Below, piece by piece: positions 2,032 through 31,894 of a DNA stretch of 64,000 nucleotides. The stretch comes from an uncultured Acidobacteriota bacterium (lineage in GTDB: Bacteria > Acidobacteriota > Terriglobia > Acidiferrales > UBA7541). The number at the start of each line of letters is the position of its first letter. Within the stretch, counting starts at the first letter, position 1. The stretch covers positions 1,314-65,313 of the forward strand of contig CAWCGE010000016.1 of NCBI GenBank assembly GCA_963795005.1, written 5' to 3'. Below the pieces are notes generated by a model. The model did not search any database. It had not been told where the DNA came from and worked only from the letters and a program-made list of their open reading frames with translations. The translations under genes and the position numbers were made by a program.

Positions 2032-2415
2032 CTATGCCGTTTTTTGCTTCGCCGCTGAACCGAACTCGCGAACGCACGCCTCGCATGGGCAAATTTCGCG
2101 AAGGTGCTCGAAGCTGAAAATTCCAGTGGCATGGCTATCGCTGAATTGGATCTGAATCGCGTAATTCCCTACGGCGTTCGCGCTCTTGGCGGTGACGCGC
2201 GGCTTATACATTGGAAGGACCGCCGTCGCGGGTACGGCCTTCGACTTCTTCTCGCGTTCATCATTGCACAGAGCACACGGGCAGTGATCGCGTAAGTAGG
2301 GAAACGTATAGGTGCTTGTGTGCATGTCGGCCCAGGTAATCTCGACGCCTTCGCCGGTTGAGACGTGCACCTTGATGCTGCTAGGTTTCTTGCGAACATC
2401 CTGCGGAATCGGCAT
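2032..2415 (-). CDS. DUF971 family protein (gamma-butyrobetaine hydroxylase-like N-terminal domain)
   Basis: The 127-aa ORF carries paired Cys motifs (LRDHCPCALCNDE ... LREICPCEAC) and the HTSTYTFPYLR signature typical of DUF971. Confidence 0.7.
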   Translation of the reverse strand: MPIPQDVRKKPSSIKVHVSTGEGVEITWADMHTSTYTFPYLRDHCPCALCNDEREKKSKAVPATAVLPMYKPRVTAKSANAVGNYAIQIQFSDSHATGIFSFEHLREICPCEACVREFGSAAKQKTA

Positions 2416-2422
2416 TTACAGT

Positions 2423-2625
2423 TCAGCCTGCAATTTGGAAATCAATCTTCTGGGCTTCCCTAACGCGACGCGAGGCATCGAGAATCTCCATTGAAACGAG
2501 ATTCCCGTCGCCATCGTAATCATGCATGATACCCGCCTGTTCTTCATCACTCTCAGCAACGGAAGCGTTCTCCCTCAGGGATGAAACTAAGCGTGTCCGT
2601 CTTTGGGTCGTAGTTGACCGTTCAC
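2423..2625 (-). pseudogene. DUF2283-like small gene (antitoxin-like partner of DUF4258), apparently frameshifted
   Basis: By hand translation, one frame gives TVNYDPKTDTLSFIPEGE and the next frame (+1) gives NASVAESDEEQAGIMHDYDGDGNLVSMEILDASRRVREAQKIDFQIAG*. Joined, they match the DUF2283 pattern (YD..aD.L.i......e.....v..DyD.dG.lvgiEIldAS). The only start candidate is a GTG at 2625-2623, forming a GTGA overlap with the upstream stop, and it is in a third frame. Confidence 0.5.
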
Positions 2626-2878
2626 TTGCTCTCTGTCGAGCAGTGCAAAACCTTGCTAGTACGATACACCGTTACCACCTCCGGCGCGTTCCCGATCGAC
2701 ATCCACAAAGACGCAAATCAGGTAAGGCTTCGAGGAGCCTTTCATTGCGACGCGCGACTGCAGGACCACACGACCGGGCCGAATTTCGAGCACCTGCTCC
2801 GGGCGCGCAAGAACTGTAGGATATTGCCGGCCGCTTCATCTCAAAGCGCGCGTGATCTCCCAGAACATATTTTGCCAT
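2622..2878 (-). pseudogene. DUF4258-like small gene (toxin-like), apparently frameshifted twice
   Basis: The track ORF 2672..2878 starts MAKYVLGDHARFEMKR and then turns into junk. Switching +1 near 2829 gives RQYPTVLARPEQVLEIRPGRVVLQSRVAMKGSSKPYLICVFVDVDRE. Switching +1 again near 2688 gives APEVVTVYRTSKVLHCSTESK*. The joined sequence resembles the DUF4258 signature (HA..Rm..R.i......l..pe.v........... yl..Vvv..d....VvTvYrtsk). Confidence 0.5.
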
Positions 2879-2897
2879 ATCCCCGCCAACGATCGGT

Positions 2898-3578
2898 TCA
2901 CACCGGCTCGGGTTTCAGAGTCGCGCTGATGTGCGCGAGACGCCCGTGAGCGAGCTCAATCCGCCGGTCCGCAAGGCAGCCGATGGATGGGGCGTGCGTG
3001 ACCATCAAGATGGTGTGGCCTTCCCGATGCATTTCGCGCAGAAGCTTGAGCACGATTTGTTCGTTCATCTCGTCGAGGTTACCGGTCGGCTCGTCCGCCA
3101 GAACCAGCCTTGGATGATTGATCAGGGCACGCGCGACGGCCACGCGCTGCTGCTCGCCGCCGGAAAGCTGCGAAGGAAGGTGTTCAGCGCGGTCGCCCAG
3201 TCCGACGCGCTCGAGAGATTGGCGCGCTTCTTTTTCATCCGTAGTACTGTGAAAATATTGCGCCAGCATCACGTTCTCCAGCGCCGTGAGGTAGGACACC
3301 AAATGAAACTGCTGGAATACGAAGCCAACCTTTTCGGCGCGGAAACGCGTGAGCCCAGCCTCATCCAGGCGCGCAACATCGGTGCCAGCCACGATTGCCC
3401 GGCCGGAAGTCGGGGTATCAAGCCCGCCAAGAATATTGATCAGCGTGGTCTTGCCCGAGCCCGATGGACCCATGATGGCGATCCATTCGCCTTCGTCGAT
3501 GCGCAGCGAAACGTCGTCGAGGGCGCGCACGCTGCCAAATACCTTGCGCAGATTATTGATCTCAACCACCGTGGCCAC
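2898..3578 (-). CDS. ABC transporter ATP-binding protein (MacB/LolD-type)
   Basis: The protein has Walker [10 protein letters not shown], signature [15 protein letters not shown] and Walker [13 protein letters not shown]. It is the last gene of the FTR1/FtsX operon. Confidence 0.9.
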
Positions 3579-3584
3579 GATTCC

Positions 3585-4730
3585 CTACTCTCCCCGCAAG
3601 ATGACGGCTGGCTTCACGTTCCCTAATGTGCGCAACGGAAGTGCGCCCGCCAGGGCTACCACGATCATCAATCCGATCGTCACCGGAAAAATTTCCCAGC
3701 GTGGCGAGATCGCGGCGCCAAACACGCGCAACCCCATCCAGTAGGAAAGTGCGACTCCGAGGATCGCCCCGAAAAGTCCGCCAACGGCGCCCAGCACGCC
3801 CACCTCGACCAAAAACAATCCAACGATGCGCGAAATGGAACCGCCCAGCGACTTCATCAGCCCGACGTCCTTGCGGCGTTCCATAGCCAACGCGGCCATG
3901 GTACCGAGTACGCACAGCGCCGTCAGAACCAGGATCAGCACCACCATCGAAAAAATGAGAAGCTGGATGCGGTCTAGCAACGCGCCCTCGACTTCAGTCA
4001 CCTGACGCATGGGCCGCACCTGCACTCCCGCGCGAACGGCGTTGGTCAGACGCGCGGTATATTCTGCGACGGTCCTGGCCGCGCCACTTACGCATATTTG
4101 CACCAAGCTGATCTGCCCGTCCAAATTCGCCAGCGCTTGCACGGTTCGCAGGCTGGCGAAGACCTGGTCATCGTCGGTGCCCCCCGCATCCACGATTCCT
4201 GCGACCGTGAATTGGGCGGAGCGATTCAAATAATCGAGCTTGAGCACTCCGCCCGGCGCAAGATGCAATTGGCGCGCCACGGCGCGGCCGATCAGGCAGT
4301 GCGAGTCATCTTCGCGCGACGAGATCCAACTCCCTTGCAGCTTCCACGTCGGCTCGATTTTCTGCGCCTGATCCAGCCAGGTTCCGGCCACTACAACCGG
4401 TGTGCCTTGCGCGCGCGCGACGATATAGAGATACGGCGCTGCCGGAACCACTTCCGGTGATTCCAAACGCTCGAGCGGCGGAAGGACCTGGTCTTCTCGC
4501 ATCAGAGTGGGCGGTGCAGCGCCGTTCTCCGATGATGCGCCCGTCGCCGGCGAGATCACGATATTCGCGCCCAACGAGCGAAATTCTTGCGTCAACTTGC
4601 TCTGCACGCCGAGATCGAGATTCAGCAGGGCGGAAATCACCGCAGCTCCACTGACGATCGCGAGAATCGCGACTGCCAACCGGCCACGACTCCCGCGCAG
4701 AAGTTGAAACACCAGGCGCCAGAACATCAT
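3585..4730 (-). CDS. ABC transporter permease, FtsX/MacB-like
   Basis: I trimmed track ORF 3585..5231 to the internal MMFWRLVFQLLRGSRGRLAVAILAIVSGAAV... start. Its ATG at 4730 forms an ATGA overlap with the upstream stop at 4727-4729. The protein has an N-terminal TM helix, a periplasmic domain and a C-terminal FtsX 4-TM bundle. Confidence 0.85.
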   Translation of the reverse strand: MMFWRLVFQLLRGSRGRLAVAILAIVSGAAVISALLNLDLGVQSKLTQEFRSLGANIVISPATGASSENGAAPPTLMREDQVLPPLERLESPEVVPAAPYLYIVARAQGTPVVVAGTWLDQAQKIEPTWKLQGSWISSREDDSHCLIGRAVARQLHLAPGGVLKLDYLNRSAQFTVAGIVDAGGTDDDQVFASLRTVQALANLDGQISLVQICVSGAARTVAEYTARLTNAVRAGVQVRPMRQVTEVEGALLDRIQLLIFSMVVLILVLTALCVLGTMAALAMERRKDVGLMKSLGGSISRIVGLFLVEVGVLGAVGGLFGAILGVALSYWMGLRVFGAAISPRWEIFPVTIGLMIVVALAGALPLRTLGNVKPAVILRGE

Positions 4731-6055
4731 CCGCCCCTTAGAATCAGGGCCGCTTCGAAATGCGCCGCACGTCTCAGGGGAAGCAAACTTCCGGCAATCG
4801 CCACGATCGCCGCGAGACCAAGGACGATTGGTAGCAAGACCAAACGAGGCGATGCCGGACTTCCAAACACGCTCTCGCCCAATATCCGCGCCAAAGCCGT
4901 TCCGGCAACAAAACCCAGCGCGCCGCCGATGATCGCCAGCAGCACCTGTTCGGCAAGAAAAATTCCATTCACCAAAGCGTTGCTCGCGCCCAGAGCCTTC
5001 ATCACGCCGATTTCCGCTTGCCGCTCGAGTACGGTAGTCGCGGACGTGGCCGCGACCGCCAGCCCAGCGGCTATCAGTGCCGCAAGGGTAACAATCCAAA
5101 GCAGCGTGCCTACGCGGTCGAGAATGCGGCCCTCGGTTTCCGCCACTCGCCGAATGGTGTGGACATCGGTGCCGGGCAGCACTGTCTTGATCTGGTAGCT
5201 GATCGAGGAAATGTAGGGAGAACAGAACCAACGATCGTATTCCGTCGGAGTAAGCTGAATGCTCTGGTCACTCTGCGCGCGCTCGCCGCGTTCCGCCAGT
5301 GCGTCGGCGGGCTTGGTTAAAGCGCTGACGAAGAGTTGGCGAAATTCGCCGGGATGCCCAGATATTTTCTGTGCCACGGAAAGCGGCACGAGAATTCCCC
5401 TATCTTCGGCATCCTCCGCCGAGACAATGCCCGTCACCCTAAGCGGCGTCACGGTTGCGCCGGTTTTGTCGCCCGCCTCGCGGCCACTCACATAAATCGT
5501 CTGGCCCGGCTTAATATCGGGCATCTTCTGGGAAAATGCCGCTCCCAGGACGCATTCGCCAGCCCCATCCGCGAACCAGCGGCCTTCGATTTTCCACCAA
5601 GGATGCGTCACGCTCAGACCTGTCTTGAACGCGGTGCCATCCGGAACAGGCACCCCGTGTTCATACCAAGTTCCTATCAGGGTCACGGGAATGGGCGCTT
5701 GGTCTTGCCGGGTCGACATCGAGGCGGGAACATCAAGAAAGGGCGTGAAGCCCAAAATATTGTGGCGCCAGAATATCGTTTTCAATTTGCCGAGGTCAGC
5801 CTCTTTCAGATAGGCGCCTTCATCCACGGGGCGATAATCCACGCCGCCAATTTCCACGGGCAAGGTGTCCGATTCCGGCGTAACCAGCAGATTGGCGCCG
5901 AGGCTGCGGAATTCGCGTGCCAGCCGGTCGCCCACTTCGAGCGCGACGGTGAGCGTCGCCGTGGCCACCGCCATTCCGACGACCAGCGCGGCAGCGGTCA
6001 ATAATTTGCGGCGCGGATTGCGAACGAAAGATTCCCGTACCAGGCGAGCGAACAT
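4727..6055 (-). CDS. ABC transporter permease, FtsX/MacB-like
   Basis: The 442-aa protein starts MFARLVRESFVRNPRRKLLTAAALVVGMAV and contains a large periplasmic domain. The C-terminal FtsX region reads ...EIGVMKALGASNALVNGIFLAEQ... Confidence 0.85.
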   Translation of the reverse strand: MFARLVRESFVRNPRRKLLTAAALVVGMAVATATLTVALEVGDRLAREFRSLGANLLVTPESDTLPVEIGGVDYRPVDEGAYLKEADLGKLKTIFWRHNILGFTPFLDVPASMSTRQDQAPIPVTLIGTWYEHGVPVPDGTAFKTGLSVTHPWWKIEGRWFADGAGECVLGAAFSQKMPDIKPGQTIYVSGREAGDKTGATVTPLRVTGIVSAEDAEDRGILVPLSVAQKISGHPGEFRQLFVSALTKPADALAERGERAQSDQSIQLTPTEYDRWFCSPYISSISYQIKTVLPGTDVHTIRRVAETEGRILDRVGTLLWIVTLAALIAAGLAVAATSATTVLERQAEIGVMKALGASNALVNGIFLAEQVLLAIIGGALGFVAGTALARILGESVFGSPASPRLVLLPIVLGLAAIVAIAGSLLPLRRAAHFEAALILRGG

Positions 6056-6059
6056 CGCG

Positions 6060-7322
6060 TCAGGAGTGAATCTTGGAGGCGGCGTCGCCCAGCGCCGAGA
6101 GGTCCACGATCACTTCGCCTCCTTCCACGCGGGACTTCACGCTGATGGGATTGCATCCGCCCGACTGGCCGATCGAGGGTATGTAGATGGACGCTCCGCA
6201 ATTCCGGCAGATGACGTTCTGGCCGTCCTGCCGGTAACCGGCCGTGCCGCAAATCTGGCAGGCATCCAGCGCTACCGCGTAGTCGCCGTTTTGCTTGTGA
6301 ATCACCAGAAAACGGATCACCGTGCCGTTCACGTCGGCCGTATAGAAGTGCAGGCTCGAATCGGTCAGCTCTGACAGCGGTATGCGGACATGGCTATCCT
6401 GGGCGATGAGCGTCTTGGCAGGCGAAGGCGCAGCAGCAACGCGCCCGTACACGTATTCTCCAGCGAATGAAATCACGACGGCGACGCACAAAATCGCTGC
6501 GGCAAAACTCCAGCCGCGCTGGCGCCGGAATTCGTGTTCTCGCATGCGCCGCTCGGCAGGGTTGGCCGCTTGGTCTGCGGCGGGCTGCTTCGCGCTGAAC
6601 CATTCGCGGAGGACCACCAGCGCCGCGGCGCCCAAAATCAAAACGAAAAAGAAGACTTCGTTGCGCACGATCGGGCCGATGGTGGACATCTCCGTCTTGC
6701 TCGAGGGAATCCACATTGCTTCGCTCAGTTCATGGACGCCGGTGAGCGCAAGCTGAAAAGCGACCACCATCAAAATGGCGCTGGTGGCCTTGAAAAACCG
6801 GCGGAGCGGAATCCGCAACGTACCTTGAAAAAAGAAGACCCCGACGGCGATCGCGATCGCAATGCCGATAGCCGTGCCGATCCAGACCTGCACGCCCGCG
6901 CTGGAAAGTTCCACGGCGCGCAGGACCAGCACCAATTCGGCGCCTTCGCGCACCACCATCAGAAAGACGAACAGGCCGATACCCCATCCCGCGGCGCGCG
7001 TCGATTTCTGCGCGTAGGCCTCCACACGCTGCTCGATTTCTTTTTTCAGATGCCGCGCCACGCGGTTCATCCAAACAATCATCGAGATCACGAGGACCGA
7101 AGCGACCAGCATCAGCAGGCCCTCGAAGCCATCCTCGCTGACCTGCCAGCGGTCCAGCAGCACGGCGGCCGCAACGCTCGCCACGGAAGCGAAAATCACG
7201 CCAGCCCAAACGTAACTAGCAAGTGCACGGCGACCCGTGCGTTTCAAATACACGAGGACGATGCCGACGACGAGGGCAGCTTCGACACCTTCACGGAGAG
7301 CCAGGAGCAGCGCAGAGAGCAT
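6060..7322 (-). CDS. Fusion protein with an N-terminal FTR1-family iron permease and a C-terminal DUF2318 Cys-rich membrane domain
   Basis: Two REGxE motifs are present (LREGVEAALV near the N-terminus and VREGAELVLV) within a polytopic N-terminal half. The C-terminal roughly 150 aa contains ...LDACQICGTAGYRQDGQNVICRNCGASIYIPSIGQSGGCNPISV..., which matches the DUF2318 pattern (CxxC...CxxC...GGCNP). Confidence 0.8.
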   Translation of the reverse strand: MLSALLLALREGVEAALVVGIVLVYLKRTGRRALASYVWAGVIFASVASVAAAVLLDRWQVSEDGFEGLLMLVASVLVISMIVWMNRVARHLKKEIEQRVEAYAQKSTRAAGWGIGLFVFLMVVREGAELVLVLRAVELSSAGVQVWIGTAIGIAIAIAVGVFFFQGTLRIPLRRFFKATSAILMVVAFQLALTGVHELSEAMWIPSSKTEMSTIGPIVRNEVFFFVLILGAAALVVLREWFSAKQPAADQAANPAERRMREHEFRRQRGWSFAAAILCVAVVISFAGEYVYGRVAAAPSPAKTLIAQDSHVRIPLSELTDSSLHFYTADVNGTVIRFLVIHKQNGDYAVALDACQICGTAGYRQDGQNVICRNCGASIYIPSIGQSGGCNPISVKSRVEGGEVIVDLSALGDAASKIHS

Positions 7323-7331
7323 ATCTTTCTC

Positions 7332-7363
7332 AGTTGTAAGTCATTTACAACTGGAAATTCCAG
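7332..7363. promoter_or_regulatory. Two adjacent perfect palindromes in the divergent control region
   Basis: The first palindrome is AGTTGTAA-gtcat-TTACAACT (7332-7352). It overlaps CTGGAA-A-TTCCAG (7351-7363) by two bases. The first lies only 10 nt upstream of the FTR1-DUF2318 start codon at 7322. Confidence 0.5.
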
Positions 7364-7412
7364 TTTAGCCCTGCCTTGCTCTTAAATCAAGCGAATTCAC
7401 TGCGACAACACT

Positions 7413-10400
7413 ATGCTCACCTTTCACGGTAGAATAGCATCTTACAGTCGAATGACTTCCCTCCGCCATTGCTGGCACCGTTCCCTTAAACCCGCGGCAA
7501 CCTTACCGGGCCGGATCCTGATTGCCGCCTTGGCGGCGCTCCCTGCGTTTTTCTTTTCGCTCTTGACGCCGAACGTCTCGGTCGTAAACGCCTTCCCGCA
7601 TCCTCAAGACGAGCAATCGTCCTCGGCGCAGAAACAGATTCAAAATCCTCCAGCTACAACTAACATTTCGCCTCTAGAGCAGAAACTGCCGTCGCCTCCT
7701 GGTAAGGCCGACGTCAAGAAGGGCAAACAGGCTTATAAGCAGGGCCTCAAGCTGGAAGAGTCGGGCGATTGGCAGGCGGCCTACGATGGCTATTCCGAGG
7801 CCGTGGATTGGGACCCCAGCATTCGAGAGTATTGGGTGCGACAGGCCGTTGCGAAAGGCCACGTAGTGCAAATGAAGGTTGATCTGGCGGAGCGCGAGGC
7901 GGTGTCTGGCCGGCTCCTGGATGCGCTGCACGCCATGCGCGAGGCACGGGAGCTGGATCCATCGAACCGCACCGTCCAGGAGCGCCTGAGCGAACTGGAG
8001 GCTCTCGATCCAGCGCGCCTCAGGCAAGTCGCCGCCAGCCCTGGACTCGCGCCTGAAGTCCGGCTGGAGCACCGCCCCGGGACCCGATCCTTTGAACTGC
8101 GCGGCCAAACGCAGGGGGCGTATCAAGAAGTGGCCCAGAGATTCGGCGTCGAGGTTGCGTTTGATGTGGACCTGCGCAACGAGCCCGTGCGCCTCGACCT
8201 GAAGGACGTTGACTTTGCCACGGTCATGCGCGTCCTGGAGGAGGAGACGGGGACCTTTTGGAGGCCCCTCACCAAACACTTGTTCTTTGTGGCGCAAGAT
8301 ACGGCGCAGAAGCGCAAGGACTACGACGTTTCAATCGCTCGCACCGTGCTGTTCTCCGCTTCGGAAACAAACGAGCAAATGACCGAACTGTCGCGGATGG
8401 TCCGCGAAGTTGCCGGAATAACTCGAACGGACCTTGATTTGAAGAGCCACACGCTGACGATGCGCGCTTCTCCGCAAGCGATCGCCGTCGCCACCGGCAT
8501 CATTGAGGACCTGGAACAGCCGCCCGCCGAACTGATCCTGGAACTTGAAGTCCTTGAAGTGGATCGCAATCGCAACAGGGATTTGGGTATCACGGGACCG
8601 CAGACCGCGACGATTTACTCCATTCCATCGAACGCGCAGCAACTCGTGGCGGAAGGTGGTGCCGCGGCGCTCAACGCCTTGCTGGAACAAGTTTTTGGAT
8701 CGTCGTCATCGATCCCGGGCCTGTTCGCTTTCGGCGGAGGGAAGACGACTTTTTTGGGCACACTCCCAGGGGCTGCCGCCAGTTTTTCGAATATGCTCTC
8801 GACCGTGCGCACGGGCCACCGCGTTCTACTACGAGCCGAGGACGGCCTGCCGGCTTCCTTTTTTGTGGGTGAACGCTTTCCAGTTTCCCTGGCGCAGTAC
8901 TCTTCCAGCCTGGTCGGTAACGCCAATAGCACCGCTACCGGCACCCCCACGGTCTCCAGCGGCTCCGCCTCCAGTCTCCCCATCACAACCCTCGCGACCG
9001 GAACCAACCCTGACTTCGTGGTTACGGGCGACCTGAACAACGATAACTTTCAAGATATCGTCGCGGCAAATTTTACGGACGGAACCCTTTCGGTGTTCTT
9101 AGGCGCTGGCTTGGGTACCTTCGGCACTCCCAGCACGGTTCCTGTCGGCAAGGGACCGACATGGATCGCCACGGGAAACTTCAACGCCAAGACCAACACG
9201 AGCGGAATTATCGATCTCGCAGTTGCGAATCAGGTAGACAACACCGTCTCGATCCTGCTGGGAAACGGCGATGGAACCTTTGCGGTGGCGCCTTCCTCGC
9301 CACTTGTGCTGCCAAGTGGCGCAAGTCCCACTGCAATCGCGGTGGGAGACTTTAACAAAGATGGTTTCGCGGACTTGGCAGTGGTCAATATGACGGCCAA
9401 CACCGTAAGCATTTTCCTGGGCAACGGTGATGGCACCTTTAAGACGCCGACTACGGTGGTCACCGGCAGCGCGCCAACTTCGATTGTCGCCGAGGCATTC
9501 AATCCCAGCAATCCATCACTTATAGATTTGGCCGTGACGAACTCCGTTGACAACACGCTTGAGATCTTCATCGGCAATGGAGATGGCACATTTCAGAAAG
9601 GCGTCACCTACGCCACGGGCGTGACCCCGGTATATGTCGCATCCGCTGACGTCAATGTCGACGGCAATCTGGATTTGGTGGTGGCCGATAGTGGCGCGGC
9701 CACCGCCTCGAACACCGTAGGCAATAGTGTCTCGGTTTTCTTGGGCAATGGCGACGGCACGTTCATCCTGCCGGGCGGCACGAGGATGGACTTTCCCGCC
9801 GGAACAAATCCCACATCCATCGCCATCGCCGATTATAATCAAGACGGCCTGCTGGATCTCGCCGTCACGGCGACTGGAGACAACTCTTTCGCATTGCTGC
9901 TTGGCGCTGGTGGTGGCGCGTTTAACTCTCCGATTGAGGTGCCCGTAGGCACTACTCCGGATTCGGTCGCGACCGCCGATTTCAACGGCGACGGGCTGCC
10001 TGACCTCGCAATTTCGAATTTCGGCTCGAACAGCGTGTCGGTGATTCTCGATTCGTCGTCGCTTATTGGCCTTCTTTCCAGCAATGGAGTCGGCACGCAA
10101 TTCCCGGGCGCCGAATATATGGACATCGGGCTGAAGGTAAAGGCCACGCCTCGAGTTCATCCGGACGGCGACGTCTCACTGCAATTCGAGTTTACCCTCA
10201 GCAGCCTCGCTGCCAACAGCGTCAACAACATTCCGGTGGTCAACAATCAGGAAATCCATCAGACCGTGCGCGTGAGGATCGACCAAACCGCCGCGCTCGC
10301 AGCTTACCTCGCGCCGCAAAACAGCACTTCGCTGAATGGTTCGCCCGGGCTGGGCAGCTTGCCGCTCAACGGCATCATCGGCGGGACGACCACCACGCAG

Positions 10401-10718
10401 TATTCCGACACCGAGTTATTGATCCTGGTGACGCCGCGGATGGTGGAGATGGCGGCGCCGCGCAAGGACCACCTGATCTATGCAGGCCGGGGCCAGGTGG
10501 AAGGCCCCTCGTCGCTAGGGCCCACGATTCAAGAACGCCGTGGATTCCAGCTCCCTAATGCGCAGCAGCCGCGGCCAATCGAGACTCAGCCGGAGCCCCA
10601 GCCAGCCCCACAACCAACCCAGCCCCCGCAGCCGCAGCCTCCTGCGGAGCAGTCGCCCGCAGAACAAACGCCAGCGAACGCGCCTCCGCCACAAAATTAC
10701 AACCCGCAGCCGCAGTAG
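7413..10718 (+). CDS. Secretin-family outer-membrane protein with an N-terminal TPR-like region, an internal FG-GAP repeat propeller and a Pro/Gln-rich tail
   Basis: The start may be the second Met at 7452 (MTSLRHCWHRSLKPAATLPGRILIAALAALPAFFF, signal-like). Secretin N-domain and secretin-domain signatures are present: ELILELEVLEVDRNRNRDLGI, VLLRAEDGLPASFFVGERFPV, then, about 370 aa later, AEYMDIGLKVKATPRVHPDGDVSLQFEFTLSSL...ELLILVTPRMV. Seven D-x-N-x-D-G...LAV.N....SVFLGNGDGTF repeats lie between those two parts. Confidence 0.8.
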   Translation: MLTFHGRIASYSRMTSLRHCWHRSLKPAATLPGRILIAALAALPAFFFSLLTPNVSVVNAFPHPQDEQSSSAQKQIQNPPATTNISPLEQKLPSPPGKADVKKGKQAYKQGLKLEESGDWQAAYDGYSEAVDWDPSIREYWVRQAVAKGHVVQMKVDLAEREAVSGRLLDALHAMREARELDPSNRTVQERLSELEALDPARLRQVAASPGLAPEVRLEHRPGTRSFELRGQTQGAYQEVAQRFGVEVAFDVDLRNEPVRLDLKDVDFATVMRVLEEETGTFWRPLTKHLFFVAQDTAQKRKDYDVSIARTVLFSASETNEQMTELSRMVREVAGITRTDLDLKSHTLTMRASPQAIAVATGIIEDLEQPPAELILELEVLEVDRNRNRDLGITGPQTATIYSIPSNAQQLVAEGGAAALNALLEQVFGSSSSIPGLFAFGGGKTTFLGTLPGAAASFSNMLSTVRTGHRVLLRAEDGLPASFFVGERFPVSLAQYSSSLVGNANSTATGTPTVSSGSASSLPITTLATGTNPDFVVTGDLNNDNFQDIVAANFTDGTLSVFLGAGLGTFGTPSTVPVGKGPTWIATGNFNAKTNTSGIIDLAVANQVDNTVSILLGNGDGTFAVAPSSPLVLPSGASPTAIAVGDFNKDGFADLAVVNMTANTVSIFLGNGDGTFKTPTTVVTGSAPTSIVAEAFNPSNPSLIDLAVTNSVDNTLEIFIGNGDGTFQKGVTYATGVTPVYVASADVNVDGNLDLVVADSGAATASNTVGNSVSVFLGNGDGTFILPGGTRMDFPAGTNPTSIAIADYNQDGLLDLAVTATGDNSFALLLGAGGGAFNSPIEVPVGTTPDSVATADFNGDGLPDLAISNFGSNSVSVILDSSSLIGLLSSNGVGTQFPGAEYMDIGLKVKATPRVHPDGDVSLQFEFTLSSLAANSVNNIPVVNNQEIHQTVRVRIDQTAALAAYLAPQNSTSLNGSPGLGSLPLNGIIGGTTTTQYSDTELLILVTPRMVEMAAPRKDHLIYAGRGQVEGPSSLGPTIQERRGFQLPNAQQPRPIETQPEPQPAPQPTQPPQPQPPAEQSPAEQTPANAPPPQNYNPQPQ
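9020..10055 (+). repeat. Seven tandem FG-GAP/VCBS-type coding repeats inside the secretin gene
   Basis: The repeats are TGDLNNDNFQDIVAAN, TGNFNAKTNTSGIIDLAVAN, VGDFNKDGFADLAVVN, AEAFNPSNPSLIDLAVTN, SADVNVDGNLDLVVAD, IADYNQDGLLDLAVTA and TADFNGDGLPDLAISN. Most are followed by ...S(V/I)(F/L)LGNGDGTF. Confidence 0.8.
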
Positions 10719-20409: not shown

Positions 20410-23400
20410 CTAATTCGGCAGCGGCACCAGCAGCACGCGATTGTTCGTCGGATCCACTTGCACGGCCACGTTCAACCGGGGATCGATGGCCACCGAGTTC
20501 GGACCGATCACCAGCGACGCAGCCGGCATCAAGCCGCCCACGTCAATGATGTCGTGCACCTGCGGCGTCGGGCAGTTCGTCGCGCCGTTCGGATTCGGCG
20601 GACAAACATAGTCCAGGACCGAAAGCGTATTGCTGGCCGCGTTCGACGTCACCAGCGTGCTCGCATTGAAATTGTAGTCGAGCGATGTCGGGTTGATACC
20701 CGTGCTGAGTGTACCCAGGACGGCGCCCGTCAACGGATTCACGATGAGGATGTCATTCAGCGAACTGTCCACCACCAGAAAATCCTGGTTCGCTGCGTCA
20801 AAGACGACGCCCGTCGGAAGCTGCAGGTTGCTCACCTGCGGTATCGGTATGCCCCCACCCGGGAGGACCAGGAGATCGAGCGCGCTGGTCTGCGAAGCAA
20901 TTGTAACGGCTCCGATATTTTGAGACGGATCGTTGTTGGGAGCAGGGTCGATAGCAACGGCCAACGGTTGAAAGTCAATGGGCGATCCGTTGGAGACGAT
21001 CGTTGACGCGGTCGCCCCGGTCACGATAAACGTCCCGAGTGCTCCCTCGTTCGCGGGATTACCCCCTGAGCTGGGCGGAATCGTGTTGGTGACTGCGGCC
21101 AGAGCAGAGTCCTGATTCAGCGCCACCCCAATAGGCAGCGTTCCTCCCCCTATCGAAAGCGTTACGGGACTGTTGAAAACCCCGTTTAACCCTTTCTCGT
21201 CGAGAATCGTGACGTCGTTGCTTCCGTTATTCGCGACCACCGCCTGCCCGGTTCGCGCGAGGATCGCAACACCGTATGGCGTTGTTCCAGTGTTAAAGAA
21301 ACTCGGCGATTGCGGCGATATCAGCGAACCGTTCAACAGGTTCACCACCGAGATGTTGCCGCTGCTGGAATTCGTCACCACCGCCTGATCCAGATACGAG
21401 TCCACGGCCACACCCACGGGGCTCGTACCCACCGTCACAGGCTGGAACACGGTTAGATCGGTGACGTTCGAAATCGCTGCGCCATTTTGCACGTAGACAA
21501 TGTAACGTCGCGCCGTCGCCAAATCGGCTGCGGGAATCGCCGCCGTAACCTGCCGGCTGCTTATCGGCGTTGTAGGCACCGCGGTGCCGTCCAGGACCAC
21601 TTGCGAACTGCCGGTAAAACCGTTGCCAACAATGGAGAGGGTCACGCCGACTGCGGGGGTCTGAGCATATACAACGGACGGGCTGGATTCCAAAATCTGT
21701 AGCGGGTTCGGCGTTGTCGTTGCCAAGAGCACCACCGACACGGTGTTGTTCCCTTGATTCACCACGTAGGCAGTATTCGTCACCGCATTCACCGCCACTG
21801 CCTGCGGGTTGCTGAAGCCCGCAATCGTCTGCAGTACGATGCTATTTTTCAGGTCCACCACATACGCATTGTTCGCGGCTCCGTTCACCGCAATTCCAAT
21901 ATTCGCCAGTGGGTTCACAGCCGCAGCGACTAGCCCTGTCGGTGAGAATGTCCCACCCCCAGGCAGCGTGAACGAAGCTGAACTGACCGATTGATCGAGC
22001 AGACTGAACGTTGTCAGACTAGGCTCCGGGGTAGGCACGTCGATCGGGCCGTTTGGGTCGGTCAGTAATGCTTGGTGCGTTTCGCTGTTAATCCCGATTC
22101 CGCGCGTCGAGGTGGAAACCAGCACATTGCCGATCACCAGAGGAGTTCGTAGCACGTCCGTCGAGTTCGCACCCACCCCTCGATTGTGGCCAAGGTCTAC
22201 GATGGTAATGGCGCCCGCACCTCCCGGCGTGCTAATCGCCCAATTCAATCTCGGGTCGACCGCCACCTGAGGTTGCAGGCCGGTGCCGACCGTAGCGATC
22301 GTCCCGCTCACGGTTTGGACGTAGGTGGGCACCCCGCCCGAGAAATCGAGGATCACAGCAATGTTGGTGGATTGAAAAACCACCATCCCGCGATGAGTCA
22401 GGGGATTGATCGCAATCGCGTAGGGCACGGGTTGCGGATTTGGCGGCGTGTTCGGATTGGGCAACGGTAGCGTTGTTACCGCCAGCGTGGTGAGGTCAAT
22501 CACCGAAACCGAATTGTCTACGCTATTGGTGACAGCGGCGATGTGATCGCCCAGCGTTCCGATAGACGTGGTGATTTGATCGTCAATCGCGACGCTGGTC
22601 GGACTGTGGCCGACTGCCACCGGCGAACCGGCCACAGGTGTGTTCGTCGCCAGATTGATAATGCTGACTGTGTTGTCGCCCGTGTTAGCGATGACTGCCA
22701 CGTTTAGCGAAGGATCAATCGCGATGGCTTGAGGCGACGTTCCTACCGCAAAGCTCGATGCCACGGCGGTGGCGATATCCCCCGGCCCAGGCTCGACTGC
22801 AATATTCGCCGCCGACATCGCGGGATTCGGCGCCACAACGTCGCTATTCCGGACAATCAGCGGATAGAGACCCGGCGAAGACACGCACCCACCTGGTATC
22901 GTGACGCTCAATTGCTGGCTGCTGGTGAGCGCAGCGGCCGCGGTCACGCCATTGCATTGAACCCTGGTCTGCGGCGAGAAATAGCCGCCGACTACATTCA
23001 CACCCAGATTCGTTCCGCCCGATATCAGCGTGTCCGGCGTGATGGCCACCACAGCAGGGCGGGACGGCACCACCGTCAAACCCTGCGGTCCGGATAGTCC
23101 AGTCGAGACATCGCCGTTTTGCGCTTGCACCACCAGTTGCAAAAGCCCCGCGCTCGTTAGCGAGCTCGCAGGAATCGTGGCGCGCAACAGCGTTCCAGTT
23201 ATGAAGATTGTGGGTATCGCCTGGGCCGGGTTGCCCACCAGAACCACGTCGTTTGAATTAAAATTCGTTCCAGTGAGATAGACGTCTTGCTGCAGCGATC
23301 CTTCGCCGACCGTATTCGGCACTAGCGAAGTCAGTGTCGGAGCGCCCGCGGAGGAGATCGATACGGTCGCTGTCCCCTGCACCGCGGGATCGAATGCCGA

Positions 23401-24072
23401 AACCGCCGAGATCGTCACGGACCCAGGTGCGCCACTGACCGGCGCGAAATATTCGCCCGCAGTACAGGCCACCGTGATCTGCGAACTCGGGCAGATGTAG
23501 CCATCCGCCGCGGTGCCTCCCGCTGTTCCACCCACTTCCCAGGTGACATTCGTATTCGTTGTACCGGTCACGTTCGCGGTGAATTGGAAATGGTCGCCCG
23601 CGGCGATCGTCGCAGTGGCGGGTATGATGTTGACCTCGATGCCCGATTTGAGTGTCACGGTCGCAGCGCCGAAAGCCTGGGTGTCCACGGTGCTGGTGGC
23701 CACAATTAAGAACGGATTGGTCGCCGGGGCGGTTTTGGGCGCCGTATACAGGCCCCCCGGAGTGTTGTTCTGTCCGGTGGTAATGGTCCCGTATCCACTT
23801 GGCAATTGAGTCTGGCCGACTGTTGCCGGGCTGCAGGTTGTCGGCTGGACGTTGCTCGGCGTGGGAGGCAGGCAAATTTGCCAAGTGACCGTCGTGGTGG
23901 AAGACCCCGTTACGGTCGCCTGAAACTGAAACTGTGCGCCAAAAGGAACCGTTTCCGTAGGGGTGTTGATGGTGACGCCCACGGGCGTCGAGTTCCCGCC
24001 GCAGCCGGACAAGACTGCAAGCGCGCAAACGACAAACGCCGGCGCAGCCAACTTCAAGAGCTTATTGCCCAT
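20410..24072 (-). CDS. Giant lipoprotein with Ig-like and IPT/TIG domains plus two or more YVTN-type beta-propeller repeat blocks
   Basis: I trimmed track ORF 20410..24168 to MGNKLLKLAAPAFVVCALAVLSGCGG, which carries the lipobox LSGC and is preceded by GAGGGTGGAAGAA. Recurrent ...VG.SP.(A/G)(I/V)A(I/V)D....A(V/I)V(A/T)N.....VS(V/I)(I/V)(D/N)L... repeats are present. IPT-like segments such as VYLTGTNFNSNDVVLVG also occur. Confidence 0.8.
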   Translation of the reverse strand: MGNKLLKLAAPAFVVCALAVLSGCGGNSTPVGVTINTPTETVPFGAQFQFQATVTGSSTTTVTWQICLPPTPSNVQPTTCSPATVGQTQLPSGYGTITTGQNNTPGGLYTAPKTAPATNPFLIVATSTVDTQAFGAATVTLKSGIEVNIIPATATIAAGDHFQFTANVTGTTNTNVTWEVGGTAGGTAADGYICPSSQITVACTAGEYFAPVSGAPGSVTISAVSAFDPAVQGTATVSISSAGAPTLTSLVPNTVGEGSLQQDVYLTGTNFNSNDVVLVGNPAQAIPTIFITGTLLRATIPASSLTSAGLLQLVVQAQNGDVSTGLSGPQGLTVVPSRPAVVAITPDTLISGGTNLGVNVVGGYFSPQTRVQCNGVTAAAALTSSQQLSVTIPGGCVSSPGLYPLIVRNSDVVAPNPAMSAANIAVEPGPGDIATAVASSFAVGTSPQAIAIDPSLNVAVIANTGDNTVSIINLATNTPVAGSPVAVGHSPTSVAIDDQITTSIGTLGDHIAAVTNSVDNSVSVIDLTTLAVTTLPLPNPNTPPNPQPVPYAIAINPLTHRGMVVFQSTNIAVILDFSGGVPTYVQTVSGTIATVGTGLQPQVAVDPRLNWAISTPGGAGAITIVDLGHNRGVGANSTDVLRTPLVIGNVLVSTSTRGIGINSETHQALLTDPNGPIDVPTPEPSLTTFSLLDQSVSSASFTLPGGGTFSPTGLVAAAVNPLANIGIAVNGAANNAYVVDLKNSIVLQTIAGFSNPQAVAVNAVTNTAYVVNQGNNTVSVVLLATTTPNPLQILESSPSVVYAQTPAVGVTLSIVGNGFTGSSQVVLDGTAVPTTPISSRQVTAAIPAADLATARRYIVYVQNGAAISNVTDLTVFQPVTVGTSPVGVAVDSYLDQAVVTNSSSGNISVVNLLNGSLISPQSPSFFNTGTTPYGVAILARTGQAVVANNGSNDVTILDEKGLNGVFNSPVTLSIGGGTLPIGVALNQDSALAAVTNTIPPSSGGNPANEGALGTFIVTGATASTIVSNGSPIDFQPLAVAIDPAPNNDPSQNIGAVTIASQTSALDLLVLPGGGIPIPQVSNLQLPTGVVFDAANQDFLVVDSSLNDILIVNPLTGAVLGTLSTGINPTSLDYNFNASTLVTSNAASNTLSVLDYVCPPNPNGATNCPTPQVHDIIDVGGLMPAASLVIGPNSVAIDPRLNVAVQVDPTNNRVLLVPLPN

Positions 24073-24179
24073 TTCTTCCACCCTCTCTGCTGAATTCATC
24101 GCGCACTGCAATCCGTCCAGCGCGTCATCGGTCGTCGCGTCGTTATAGCTCGAGATCTGCCAACTCAACCGTTCGATCT

Positions 24180-29571: not shown

Positions 29572-30393
29572 TCACCCACGCTCCCCCGGAGTCTGCGCCC
29601 CAGCACTCGCTGTCTGCGGGAGAGGAACCGTCGAACCTGCGAGCGCTTCTGCACCCGAACCTAGCTTGCCATGTTCCAGAGTCAGAACGCGGTGGGCGCG
29701 GCGGGCGATTGAAATGTTGTGTGTTGCAAGAATAGAAGTCAGCTGATGAGTCTTGTGCAGATGCTGCATGAGCTCGAAAACGTTTTCCGCGCTGCGTTCG
29801 TCCAAGTCGCCGGTAGGTTCGTCCGCCAGCAACAATTGCGGGCCATTCACCAGAGCTCGCGCGATGGCCACACGCTGTTGTTCGCCGCCGGATAATTGAC
29901 CCCCGCGCTGCTCCGCTCGATCGGCCAATCCAACCTCGCCTAACCAGTTTGCCGCGGTGCGCAGTGCCTCTCCCAAAGAGGTCCCCCGAATCAGCAGAGG
30001 CATGGCCACATTTTCCGCAGCCGTGAAGTCGGGCAGAAGATGATGTCGCTGCCAGACAAAACCCACCGCGCGATTGCGATACTCCGCTAATTCCGCTTCC
30101 GCAAGCGACTCGAGCGAATTCTCGCCGAAGTATACTGTACCGCTCGTTGGAGTGTCCAGCGCAGCCAGCAGGTGCAGCAGCGTGCTTTTGCCGGCGCCGG
30201 ACGGCCCGACAATGGCGACCATTTCGCCGCGCGCAATCGAAAAATCCACTCCGTCGAGCGGCGTAACCTGCTGGCCTCCGGAGCGGAAGGTCTTGCGTAG
30301 ACCCGCGCCCCGCAGGATTTCCGCGGCGCTGGACGCGACCCCCTCGCCAGCATCTTCCAGGACTGCAACGCTCGAATTGGACTGTGTGCGCAT
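29572..30393 (-). CDS. lolD: Lipoprotein-releasing system ATP-binding protein (LolD-like)
   Basis: The protein contains [38 protein letters not shown] and [12 protein letters not shown]. It lies downstream of a LolC/E-type permease. Confidence 0.8.
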
Positions 30394-30667
30394 CCCTAGG
30401 GACTGGTCTCTTTCACGTTAGATGCCGAACCTGCCCTATCAGTATGTCCTTCCTTTACAAACAACTATGTATTCCCGGAACGAAGCCGCTCATCAGCAAA
30501 TCCAAAGAATTTCTCATTATTGCCGTACCGTTACCTCTAGCAACTCCTTTGCTTGCAGGAATCGGAAGCTTGGCCACCTCCCCAAGTTCGCTTCTTGTTC
30601 GATTCTAACACGGAGCACGGCGAAATGTTGGCGCGTCCACGGACATTTTCGGCTAGCGGAAGCGATT

Positions 30668-31894
30668 CTATTCGAAGCGGAGAATCTCAACGGGAAGAAC
30701 GCTCGCCGCCGAACGAGCCGGCAAGATCGTCGCCGCGATGCTAATCAGCAGGGCGGCGGCGGCGATCCATACGGCGTCCAGCGCATTCGTGTGGAATGGG
30801 ACGTAGGGAATTGCATACACCTCGGGATTCAACGGGATCAATCGCCAGCGATCCGCTACACCCGCAAATGTGTAACCGATCAGCAGGCCCGCGAGGGTGC
30901 CAGCAATACTCACGACCAATCCTTGCAGAACAAAAATTTTGCGCAGTTGCTGCCGCTGCGCGCCCATGGCCATCAGCACGGCAATGTCGCGCGCGCGATC
31001 GGTCACCGTCATCGTGAGGACGACCAGAATATTCAGCCCGGCCACAAATGTAATCAGCCCTATGAAAAGAGCAGTCACCAATTTCTCCAGACTTAGCGCG
31101 CGAAACAGCGCGCGATTTTCATCCATCCACGTTGAAGTCGTGAACCCGCTCCCCGCGCGCTTCAATAGTTCATCGGCGATCGCGCCGGCGTTGTCCATGT
31201 GCGTTACTCGCACCTCGAGCAGACTCACCACATCGCCGATCCCGGAAAGCCCCTGCGCCGCCGGTAAGGTGACGAATCCCCAATTCGCGTCGTAATCGTA
31301 AAACCCGGAGTCGAAAACTCCCGTTACTCGAAAACGCCGCGACCGCGGCAGCATCCCGAAAGGGGTCAAGTTTCCTTGCGGGCTGGTCAGCGTCACATAA
31401 TCGCCCGCGGTTATTTCCAGGTCATTGGCCAAAATCCGGCCCACCAAAACCGCCGGAATCCCGTCCGCGTCCGGCGCGAATTCTCCGTTACCCGCAACCA
31501 GGTGGTGTAGCGCCTCGCTCGCGCGCTGCTCGAGTTCCGGATCAACTCCCTTCAGCACGATTCCCCGCGCGCGGCCGCCGGACGAAAGAAGAACCGTGGC
31601 ATAGATCGCCGGCTCAATTGAGCGCACGCCGGGAGTATCGCTGAGACGAGCCATCCACCCGCGATAGTCGCGGATTCCGTTTGGCCCAATTGGTTTGAGG
31701 TTGACGTGCGCGGTCACGCTGAGCAAGCGATCGCGGATTGCCTGGCGGAATCCGGTGTTCATCGCGAGCGCAATTACCAGCGTGGTGACGCCTGCCGCGA
31801 CTCCTACAACGGCCAGTAGTGTGACGATTCGCAGCACCGCAGGTCGGTTCGGCGACCGCAGATACCGCAGCGCCACCAGCCACTCGAATGTCAT
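30668..31894 (-). CDS. Lipoprotein-releasing system permease (LolC/E family)
   Basis: The protein starts MTFEWLVALRYLRSPNRPAVLRIVTLLAVVGVAAGV and ends in an FtsX C-terminal bundle. An ATGA overlap with the lysS stop sits at 31891-31894. Confidence 0.85.
   Translation of the reverse strand: MTFEWLVALRYLRSPNRPAVLRIVTLLAVVGVAAGVTTLVIALAMNTGFRQAIRDRLLSVTAHVNLKPIGPNGIRDYRGWMARLSDTPGVRSIEPAIYATVLLSSGGRARGIVLKGVDPELEQRASEALHHLVAGNGEFAPDADGIPAVLVGRILANDLEITAGDYVTLTSPQGNLTPFGMLPRSRRFRVTGVFDSGFYDYDANWGFVTLPAAQGLSGIGDVVSLLEVRVTHMDNAGAIADELLKRAGSGFTTSTWMDENRALFRALSLEKLVTALFIGLITFVAGLNILVVLTMTVTDRARDIAVLMAMGAQRQQLRKIFVLQGLVVSIAGTLAGLLIGYTFAGVADRWRLIPLNPEVYAIPYVPFHTNALDAVWIAAAALLISIAATILPARSAASVLPVEILRFE

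Follow-up and report, generated by a model that had tools for sequence, protein, structure and literature searches.

The Fet system, designated fetMP-fetABCDEF in Campylobacter jejuni, fetMP-fls in Salmonella and Escherichia coli, and flp in Yersinia (PMC6083913, PMC10783030, PMC7285068), is an iron-uptake system associated with virulence in Campylobacter, uropathogenic E. coli, Salmonella and Yersinia. Its FetA protein has been described as eight transmembrane (TM) helices combined with a DUF2318 and a YHS domain (PMC10783030). Deletion of fetA, fetB, fetC or fetD impairs growth of C. jejuni under iron limitation, and full growth under this condition needs all of fetM, fetP and fetA-D (PMC10783030); a fetMP-flsDA mutant has lower cell iron, with Zn and Mn unchanged (PMC7285068). 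According to these two studies, it is not known what FetA does biochemically or which substrate FetBCD handle (PMC10783030, PMC7285068). Here we analyse a 64,000-nucleotide (nt) stretch of contig CAWCGE010000016.1 from an uncultured Acidobacteriota bacterium (hereafter, the window), which contains an operon of four minus-strand open reading frames (ORFs) arranged head to tail (7322..2898). The first ORF encodes a 420-aa protein that joins an FTR1-type permease to a DUF2318 domain.

On balance, we favour reading the four proteins of this operon as a self-contained metal importer of the inner membrane, with iron as its most likely substrate, and the operon as the FetABCD core in a 'live' form. 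The FTR1 domain keeps the iron-carrying residues; hence, the FetA-like protein could be its own channel. The contrast with pathogen FetA, which has lost these residues and sits beside a separate channel gene and P19, hints at the core of the still poorly understood Fet system.

The FetA-like protein and its operon

The fetA-like gene (6060..7322, minus strand, ATG start) encodes an FTR1 permease, an eighth TM helix (TM8) and a periplasmic DUF2318 domain (PF10080). An initial annotation of this DNA, made from the letters alone, had read the protein as an N-terminal FTR1 permease with two REGxE motifs joined to a Cys-rich C-terminal DUF2318 domain, and profile searches bear out both assignments. 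Pfam FTR1 (PF03239) matches residues 1-202 (E 2e-39, 136.1 bits against a cut-off of 25.3), and PF10080, formerly DUF2318 and now called 'FtrD-like', matches residues 320-413 (E 1.8e-28, 99 bits against a cut-off of 26.3). The NCBIfam EfeU model also matches (E 1e-47), with 162.6 bits against an equivalog cut-off of 255; the protein is thus not an EfeU equivalog.

Pfam, an AlphaFold2 (AF2) model and hhalign place a 7-TM permease domain of FTR1 type at residues 1-243 (6594..7322). It carries REGVE in TM1 (residues 10-14, 7281..7295), REGAE in TM4 (residues 125-129, 6936..6950) and HELSE at the periplasmic end of TM6 (residues 197-201, 6720..6734), all read directly from the sequence. REXXE motifs are the iron-path residues of Ftr1p and EfeU. 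In an alignment of 69 homologues, R10, E11, E14, R125, E126, E129, H197, E198 and E201 are invariant in all 61 intact sequences. The other eight, which we call degenerate, have lost both REGxE motifs, and in seven of these eight H197/E198/E201 are replaced by Q/V/A. The FetM counterpart of the HELSE motif is K-E-L-Q-E. The AF2 model of the whole protein (pLDDT 89.9, pTM 0.79) has seven helices ahead of an Arg-rich cytoplasmic linker, which together with TM8 occupies residues 244-299 (6426..6593; AF2 helix 255-296), and TM8 would return the C-terminal domain to the periplasmic side. From the Arg-rich linker and the topology of yeast Ftr1p, we infer that the FTR1 part has its N-terminus outside and its C-terminus inside; the Arg-rich stretch RRMREHEFRRQR would agree with the positive-inside rule. 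Sequence-profile searches of the PDB found no solved relative of either the FTR1 or the DUF2318 domain.

The DUF2318, or 'FtrD-like', domain is placed by Pfam and AF2 as a beta domain at residues 300-420 (6060..6425). Its Cys cluster, C355-x2-C358-x13-C372-x2-C375-x14-C390-N-P392 (6147..6260; CQICG...CRNCG...GGCNP), contains five Cys residues that are invariant across all 69 sequences, intact and degenerate alike, and the x13 and x14 spacings exactly fit the published CxxC-x13-CxxC-x14,15-C motif (PMC6083913). A domain-only AF2 model reached a pLDDT of 94.4 and a pTM of 0.88. The top 50 Foldseek matches were all Rieske oxygenase N-domains, Rieske ferredoxins or NirD (E 2e-3 to 2e-2, TM-score 0.45-0.60), and the domain-only and whole-protein models both retrieved only Rieske-type PDB domains. 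The best small target was a carbazole dioxygenase ferredoxin (2de7_E; TM-score 0.60, rmsd 4.1 A, 107 columns). Rieske proteins have a CxH / CxxH / Pro-loop arrangement. The DUF2318 domain resembles Rieske [2Fe-2S] domains in its predicted beta-sandwich and in two knuckles separated by about 17 residues, after which comes a third, Gly/Pro-rich loop (GGCNP), but has CxxC...CxxC and a fifth Cys instead of CxH...CxxH. The two CxxC knuckles and the GGCNP loop thus mirror the Rieske layout, which supports a metal or Fe-S site of some kind. We predict that DUF2318 has a Rieske-like fold with all-Cys ligands. Two points count against this prediction: the Foldseek E-values fall short of 1e-3, making the match moderate, and the ligands are CxxC, not CxH/CxxH, with Zn, mononuclear Fe, [2Fe-2S] and redox-active disulfides all candidates for the cofactor. 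DUF2318 had no sequence match among PDB Rieske chains.

Downstream lie two genes for permeases with MacB_PCD and FtsX domains, fetB-like (4727..6055, 442 aa) and fetC-like (3585..4730, 381 aa), both with ATG starts, and a fetD-like gene for an ABC ATPase (2898..3578, 226 aa, GTG start; Pfam ABC_tran), all on the minus strand. The stop and start codons of the two permease genes overlap in an ATGA at 4727-4730, and the remaining gaps within the operon are 4 nt and 6 nt; this agrees with the initial annotation, which had listed two FtsX permeases, the second coupled to the first by ATGA, and then an ABC ATPase. Walker A (GPSGSGKT), signature (LSGGEQQR) and Walker B (LVLADEPT) motifs are all intact in the ATPase. 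FtsX four-TM and MacB_PCD domains, together with these cognate nucleotide-binding domain (NBD) motifs, are the defining features of type VII ABC transporters, and the window module has all of them. In NCBIfam, the fetC-like permease best matches lolCE (46 bits against a cut-off of 362), and the models nearest to the fetD-like ATPase are MacB NBD, LolD and FtsE. We considered membership in LolC/LolE/LolD or MacB proper and rejected it, all of these scores being far below the curated cut-offs. Elsewhere in the window (29572-31894, minus strand), a second pair of FtsX/MacB_PCD permease and ABC ATPase beside lysS is probably a true Lol system, and an ADOP-type duplicated FtsX permease of 820 aa is encoded at 58726-61188 (minus strand).

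FetA, FTR1 and the distribution of P19

We compared the window with an E. coli plasmid locus (L001), in which FetM (FTR1) and P19 are followed by a 459-aa FetA/FlsD, two FtsX permeases, an ATPase and a TlpA-like thioredoxin. The 459-aa protein is annotated as 'Fe-S-containing protein', and Pfam finds PF10080 and YHS in it but no FTR1. The proteins encoded downstream in the window pair reciprocally, and in the same order, with the plasmid FetB, FetC and FetD (34%, 34% and 64% identity); hence, the window operon corresponds to fetA-B-C-D. The initial annotation was therefore right to liken the parts to a Campylobacter-type locus, these being FetB/C/D orthologues in order. It had also proposed that two separate components of that locus are fused here, a view that has to be amended, since classical FetA already has this architecture, with a degenerate FTR1 part. 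Judged by these sequence relationships, the window protein is a FetA with an intact permease domain, and not a FetM fused to a DUF2318 protein. What is absent from the window system is the FetM and P19 pair, as one unit.

Classical FetA/FlsD is laid out in the same way, with seven TM helices, then TM8, then DUF2318 in the periplasm, and its 7-TM part is a degenerate FTR1 domain beyond Pfam recognition. The most distant full-length matches to the window protein align from end to end and lack REXXE, having, for example, 'LTDGFEAAL' for 'LREGVEAAL'. In these proteins Pfam recognises PF10080 only, with sub-threshold traces of FTR1 (E 5e-4 in P0268). E. coli FetA aligns end to end with the REXXE-less proteins, and phmmer aligns it with the window protein over residues 156-397, from TM5 onward (whole-sequence E 7.5e-30). 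Profile-profile comparison of N-termini by hhalign linked 44 REXXE-less sequences to the intact fused family (99.8% probability, E 4e-29, 254 columns) and, less strongly, to four unfused FetM permeases (91.9%, E 7e-7, 200 columns); the intact fused family matched FetM at 99.8% (E 1e-30, 231 columns). The N-terminus of E. coli FetA alone matched the intact family at 85.9%, and reversed-sequence controls gave at most 1.3%. One 486-aa homologue (P0264) is intermediate in form: both REXXE motifs are lost, and HEFSE at the TM6 mouth, DUF2318 and YHS are kept.

The fused protein is widespread. A word-indexed search gave 5199 homologues at E<=1e-5, the best 120 of which all have both domains, and an exhaustive search of 50%-identity representatives gave 213 clusters at E<=1e-30. 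Of the 150 best representatives, well over half match over their full length in a single stretch, down to 26% identity. The exact window protein was not on record in public assemblies, and the 95%-identical P0003 was used in its stead. A scan of one genome per species, with a search pattern in the FTR1 part derived from an 18-sequence alignment, found at least 588 relatives. We surveyed the best 80 of these with 10 kb on either side, locating genes by tblastn and a GC3-weighted ORF caller. All 80 are fused, and all 80 species-level loci keep the order fusion-FtsX-FtsX-ATPase as far as their contigs reach, down to 43% identity; of 81 loci, 80 have a fetB-like gene after the fusion gene. The nearest relatives place the source organism in Candidatus Acidiferrales, within Acidobacteriota. 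Distribution outside Acidobacteriota was taken from protein searches. Beyond the best-80 set, the fused protein occurs in the archaeon Ca. Methanoperedens, in KSB1, in a Clostridiales metagenome-assembled genome (MAG) and in Blastocatellia. Two FtsX genes follow it in Methanoperedens, KSB1 and Blastocatellia, and one precedes the contig end in Clostridiales; an ABC ATPase gene follows the FtsX genes in Methanoperedens and KSB1. Some intact homologues, like classical FetA, have an extra C-terminal YHS domain, which Pfam does not find in the window protein. In the Ca. Methanoperedens locus (L087 9340-11804), the fused gene is separated from the FtsX genes by an insertion that encodes a PhnD-like binding protein, an ABC ATPase and a permease.

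The initial annotation had noted that no P19 or thioredoxin gene adjoins the operon and had proposed a survey of fusion-gene neighbourhoods; the first point stands for the whole 64-kb window, and the surveyed loci, with their conserved order, proved free of P19. No P19, EfeO or thioredoxin gene adjoins the operon, and neither the operon nor its flanks contain a second FTR1 (FetM) gene. Pfam analysis of 30 further window ORFs gave only housekeeping genes (BamA, Skp, ClpB-like, LysS, RecG, ECF sigma factors, a TonB-C protein and the second Lol-like set) and no P19, EfeO, cupredoxin, thioredoxin, Fur or DtxR. A P19 hidden Markov model (HMM) built from five seeds recovered only its own seeds; at E<=1 it had no match in the window, whatever the frame, and none in the fused loci. 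With E. coli P19 as query, tblastn gave no match within 10 kb of any species-level locus, and there was no P19 near the fused gene in the Methanoperedens, KSB1, Clostridiales or Blastocatellia contexts. A TlpA query matched in only 2 of 81 loci, in neither case inside the operon, and FetE/FetF-type thioredoxin genes are not adjacent. We also looked for a conserved periplasmic partner gene in the flanks, and rejected this idea: the Acidoferrales flanks (secretin/FG-GAP, DUF971, AA permease, MscL) and the Terriglobales flanks (SprT-like, TPR, UvrA, MurI, SDR and, in 11 loci, TonB) are wholly different, indicating that no such partner travels with the operon.

The presence of P19 follows the state of FetA. 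Separate FTR1 and one or two P19 genes lie immediately upstream of degenerate FetA in 6 of 6 loci (the E. coli plasmid, a metagenome contig, Calderihabitans, Sporomusa, Omnitrophota and Cohaesibacter), and upstream of intact FetA in 0 of 87 (the window, the 80 species loci, the close relatives L082 and L083, and the four other lineages). Thus, across 93 loci, P19 strictly co-occurs with a separate FetM and a degenerate FetA. As a consequence, P19 is the partner of FetM and not of FetA, and probably nothing needs to replace it in the window system. The initial annotation had asked what replaces P19 here; the absence of P19 at the locus holds, and a replacement is probably not called for, given that P19 at the loci surveyed accompanies only FetM and degenerate FetA.

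A rough neighbour-joining tree built on the DUF2318 domain (unrooted, with no support values) has a single split that gathers 42 of the 43 degenerate forms on the same side, along with three intact forms that include the Clostridiales protein. This single split is suggestive of the FetA permease having degenerated essentially once, from a fused ancestor. At the degenerate locus of the Omnitrophota MAG (L091 3376-6979), a Fur gene lies directly before FetM, and a gene for an Alginate_exp-type outer-membrane porin, a possible outer-membrane entry route, lies between P19 and FetA.

Proposed mechanism, regulation and alternatives

We infer substrate, transport direction, the roles of the Cys domain and of the ABC module, and the regulator, and put them forward as a working model. 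Iron would enter through the FTR1 domain, by way of the REGxE motifs in TM1 and TM4 and the HExxE at the periplasmic mouth. TM8 would tether the Cys5 Rieske-like domain, with a metal or Fe-S centre bound to it, over the channel mouth, where it could hand iron and/or electrons to the channel, a job done elsewhere by soluble P19, EfeO or Fet3. MacB-type ABC systems are usually exporters or extractors, and LolCDE-like machines do periplasmic work by mechanotransmission, not by moving substrate across the membrane. The FtsX/FtsX/ATPase set forms a LolCDE-like heterodimeric ABC machine. Its target may be the tethered domain or chelated iron, in which case it would perform ATP-driven periplasmic work, as type VII transporters do, and would not be a second translocation path. 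Classical FetA (FlsD of E. coli and Salmonella and, by published orthology, C. jejuni FetA) would be a pseudo-permease that has kept its Cys domain and its ABC partnership, while a separate FetM, accompanied by P19, would have taken over transport.

The region upstream of the operon contains a putative promoter and a candidate operator, both on the minus strand. A -35-like hexamer, TTGATT (7385..7390), lies 17 nt upstream of a -10-like hexamer, TAAACT (7362..7367; TAGACT or TACACT in relatives). The first of these is a phylogenetic footprint only, 'cTTGAtt' being kept across Acidoferrales loci while flanking bases vary, and a scan with a strict sigma-70 consensus did not call the operon promoter. 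The candidate operator is a perfect 9-5-9 palindrome, CAGTTGTAA-ATGAC-TTACAACTG (7331..7353), that ends 8 nt before the ATG. Its half-site, CCAGTTG/CAACTGG, occurs three times in 7330-7365, giving the overlapping palindromes AACTGGAA-T-TTCCAGTT and CAGTTGTAA-N5-TTACAACTG, and the third half-site, AACTGG at 7360-7365, overlaps the -10. The palindromes span the -10 and the 5' untranslated region, which suggests two adjacent dimer sites. An exact AGTTG-N11-CAACT site occurs once in the window, at the operator, and we found no other operator copies in the window that might define a regulon. The palindrome core (<=1 mismatch) is present in the upstream 200 nt of all 40 loci with at least 57% protein identity, the mean for shuffled sequences being 0.24. 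Among 40 more distant loci of Terriglobales type, TGAAAnTGAAnTTCAnTTTCA replaces the palindrome in 23; it agrees at 15 of 19 positions with the E. coli Fur-box consensus. A gene for a DtxR/FeoA-type repressor follows the Methanoperedens operon (L087 15248-15907), and DtxR-family fragments occur at two other loci. A metal-responsive regulator probably represses the operon, acting at the palindrome that separates the -10 from the ATG.

Several observations weigh against the reading of the operon as a self-contained iron importer, or limit its reach. The P19-free loci are phylogenetically clustered, 82 of the 87 counting as Acidobacteriota (a few with other bin labels), so that their number overstates their independence. 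The homology of FetA to FTR1 was tested on the E. coli plasmid orthologue, C. jejuni FetA being linked to it by published orthology. Iron as the substrate follows from family membership and from regulators; the window operator is unlike a Fur box, and the window contains no regulator gene. Finally, the search for P19, EfeO and a second FTR1 covered 64 kb of the genome and 10 kb on either side of each relative, and with this scope the Fet system of the window could be incomplete, its missing part being a periplasmic protein of P19 or EfeO type, perhaps along with thioredoxins, supplied by genes at other sites in the genome. The requirement of C. jejuni for fetM, fetP and fetA-D together (PMC10783030) points in the same direction. 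We nevertheless regard this alternative as unlikely: P19 is missing from the window and from all 87 intact loci but is adjacent in 6 of 6 degenerate ones, the permease residues are strictly conserved only where FetM and P19 are absent, and the same P19-free form is found in an archaeon and in a Clostridiales MAG.

We give equally little credence to the view that the system handles another metal (Cu, Mn, Zn or Pb), or is a redox or efflux device instead of an iron importer. YHS domains, which are often linked to copper, are present on some intact homologues and on classical FetA, but the window protein has none. The FTR1 family includes lead transporters; DtxR-family repressors can be Mn-responsive; the window operator is not Fur-like; and MacB-type ABC systems are in general associated with export or extraction, all of which fit such a view. 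Set against them are the REXXE motifs, which in Ftr1p and EfeU line the path of iron, and the Fur-box-like sites of the sister clade. Phenotypes of the orthologous system likewise favour iron, namely those of the fetA-D deletions (PMC10783030) and the lower cell iron, with Zn and Mn unchanged, in the fetMP-flsDA mutant (PMC7285068).

Contigs from four independent soil metagenome runs in Logan match the region without indels, and three of them (X1, X2 and X4) cross the junction between the domains, X2 with 0 differences over 5854-6680. That two genes were joined artificially into the fused ORF, through sequencing, assembly or a frameshift, would have weakened the finding of the initial annotation by its own terms. 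This can be dismissed for practical purposes, given thousands of full-length homologues with both domains, 80 species-level genomic loci that hold the fused gene, independent contigs that cross the junction without indels, and a high-confidence single-chain model with a connecting TM helix; the fusion is real.

Evolution, neighbouring genes and comparison with described systems

A broader evolutionary proposal is attractive, and we make it tentatively, the odds being somewhat against it. The FetA family may have begun as an autonomous FTR1 permease with a tethered Rieske-like all-Cys redox or metal domain, driven or aided by a LolCDE-like mechanotransmission ABC module and working without a soluble periplasmic partner. 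The window operon would then be the ancestral working form, and in Campylobacter, E. coli, Salmonella and Yersinia, FetA would be a pseudo-permease that arose from it on a single occasion and now serves as a scaffold or electron-relay subunit for FetM/P19. If true, this would be the first ATP-assisted FTR1-type importer, and would give the uncharacterised FetABCD proteins a concrete role. The pair of domains is already visible in database annotations ('high-affinity iron transporter', 'Fe-S-containing protein'). In the literature that mentions DUF2318, taking the text of the main functional and fetMP-fls studies and otherwise titles and abstracts, we found no description of an intact fused form, and no mention of an FTR1 ancestry of FetA or of a Rieske-like fold. 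A FetA with a dead FTR1 domain, a live version in which FetABCD stands alone, and the prediction of a Rieske-like all-Cys DUF2318 together make the problem of FetA and FetBCD more tractable. A minimal four-protein system from non-pathogenic soil bacteria offers a route to the role of the Cys domain and of the MacB-like ABC module. The system is abundant in Acidobacteriota of acidic soils and peat, and hence may be a major, so far undescribed, route of iron acquisition there.

The operon is flanked upstream by a divergent secretin/FG-GAP gene and downstream by about 480 bp of decayed toxin-antitoxin (TA) sequence, after which comes a DUF971 gene. The divergent gene (7413-10718, plus strand) is kept in Acidoferrales synteny and encodes a 1101-aa protein with TPR, multiple FG-GAP/VCBS repeats and a C-terminal secretin domain, an unusual architecture for a secretin. 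The TA remnant (2416-2897, minus strand), between the ATPase and DUF971 genes, contains a DUF4258-like reading (...VVTVYRTSK) with at least two frameshifts and a DUF2283-like reading (YDPKTDTL...YDGDGNLVSMEILDAS) with one, both domains being named by eye; the close relatives L082 and L083 have merely a 78-nt gap at this position. The DUF971, or GBBH-like_N, gene (2032-2415, minus strand), the first directly 3' of the operon, encodes a small Cys-rich protein. It is syntenic in 28 loci of Acidoferrales type and not in other orders, and the TA remnant intervenes in the window; its membership in the operon as a fifth gene is thus unsupported. Farther away, a 1252-aa ORF (20410-24168, minus strand) lies immediately upstream, in the direction of transcription, of BamA and Skp, and has no Pfam match at 1e-5. 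The AA-permease gene at 1-1805 is not a broken gene; its ORF merely runs off the end of the window.

Among ABC systems, the window module resembles LolCDE and MacB in having two unlike FtsX subunits, each with MacB_PCD, and a separate LolD/MacB-like ATPase, but its genomic partner is a metal permease and not a lipoprotein or efflux component. FtrABCD of Bordetella and Brucella also combines an FTR1 permease with a membrane-bound putative Fe-S protein that has been proposed as an electron partner, and Pfam calls PF10080 'FtrD-like'; the system differs in lacking an FtsX/ABC module and in having FtrA, a P19, and FtrB, which is cupredoxin-like. EfeUOB of E. coli and B. subtilis and yeast Fet3p-Ftr1p share with the window system an FTR1/EfeU permease with two REXXE motifs and a periplasmic or extracellular redox or metal-binding partner. 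In the window that partner is tethered covalently, its fold is unrelated to EfeO, EfeB or multicopper oxidases, and an ABC ATPase module is present that these systems lack. The closest likeness is to the Fet systems of C. jejuni, Salmonella, E. coli and Yersinia, with FetA-B-C-D orthologues in the same order, the Cys5 motif, and the layout of eight TM helices and a periplasmic domain. Compared with those of C. jejuni, Salmonella (pUO-StVR2), E. coli F11 and Y. pestis, the window operon has no separate FetM, P19/FetP or thioredoxins FetE/F; its FetA is without YHS, and its upstream operator is unlike theirs. Classical FetA has lost both REGxE motifs and HExxE, whereas the window FetA keeps them and scores as FTR1 in Pfam.

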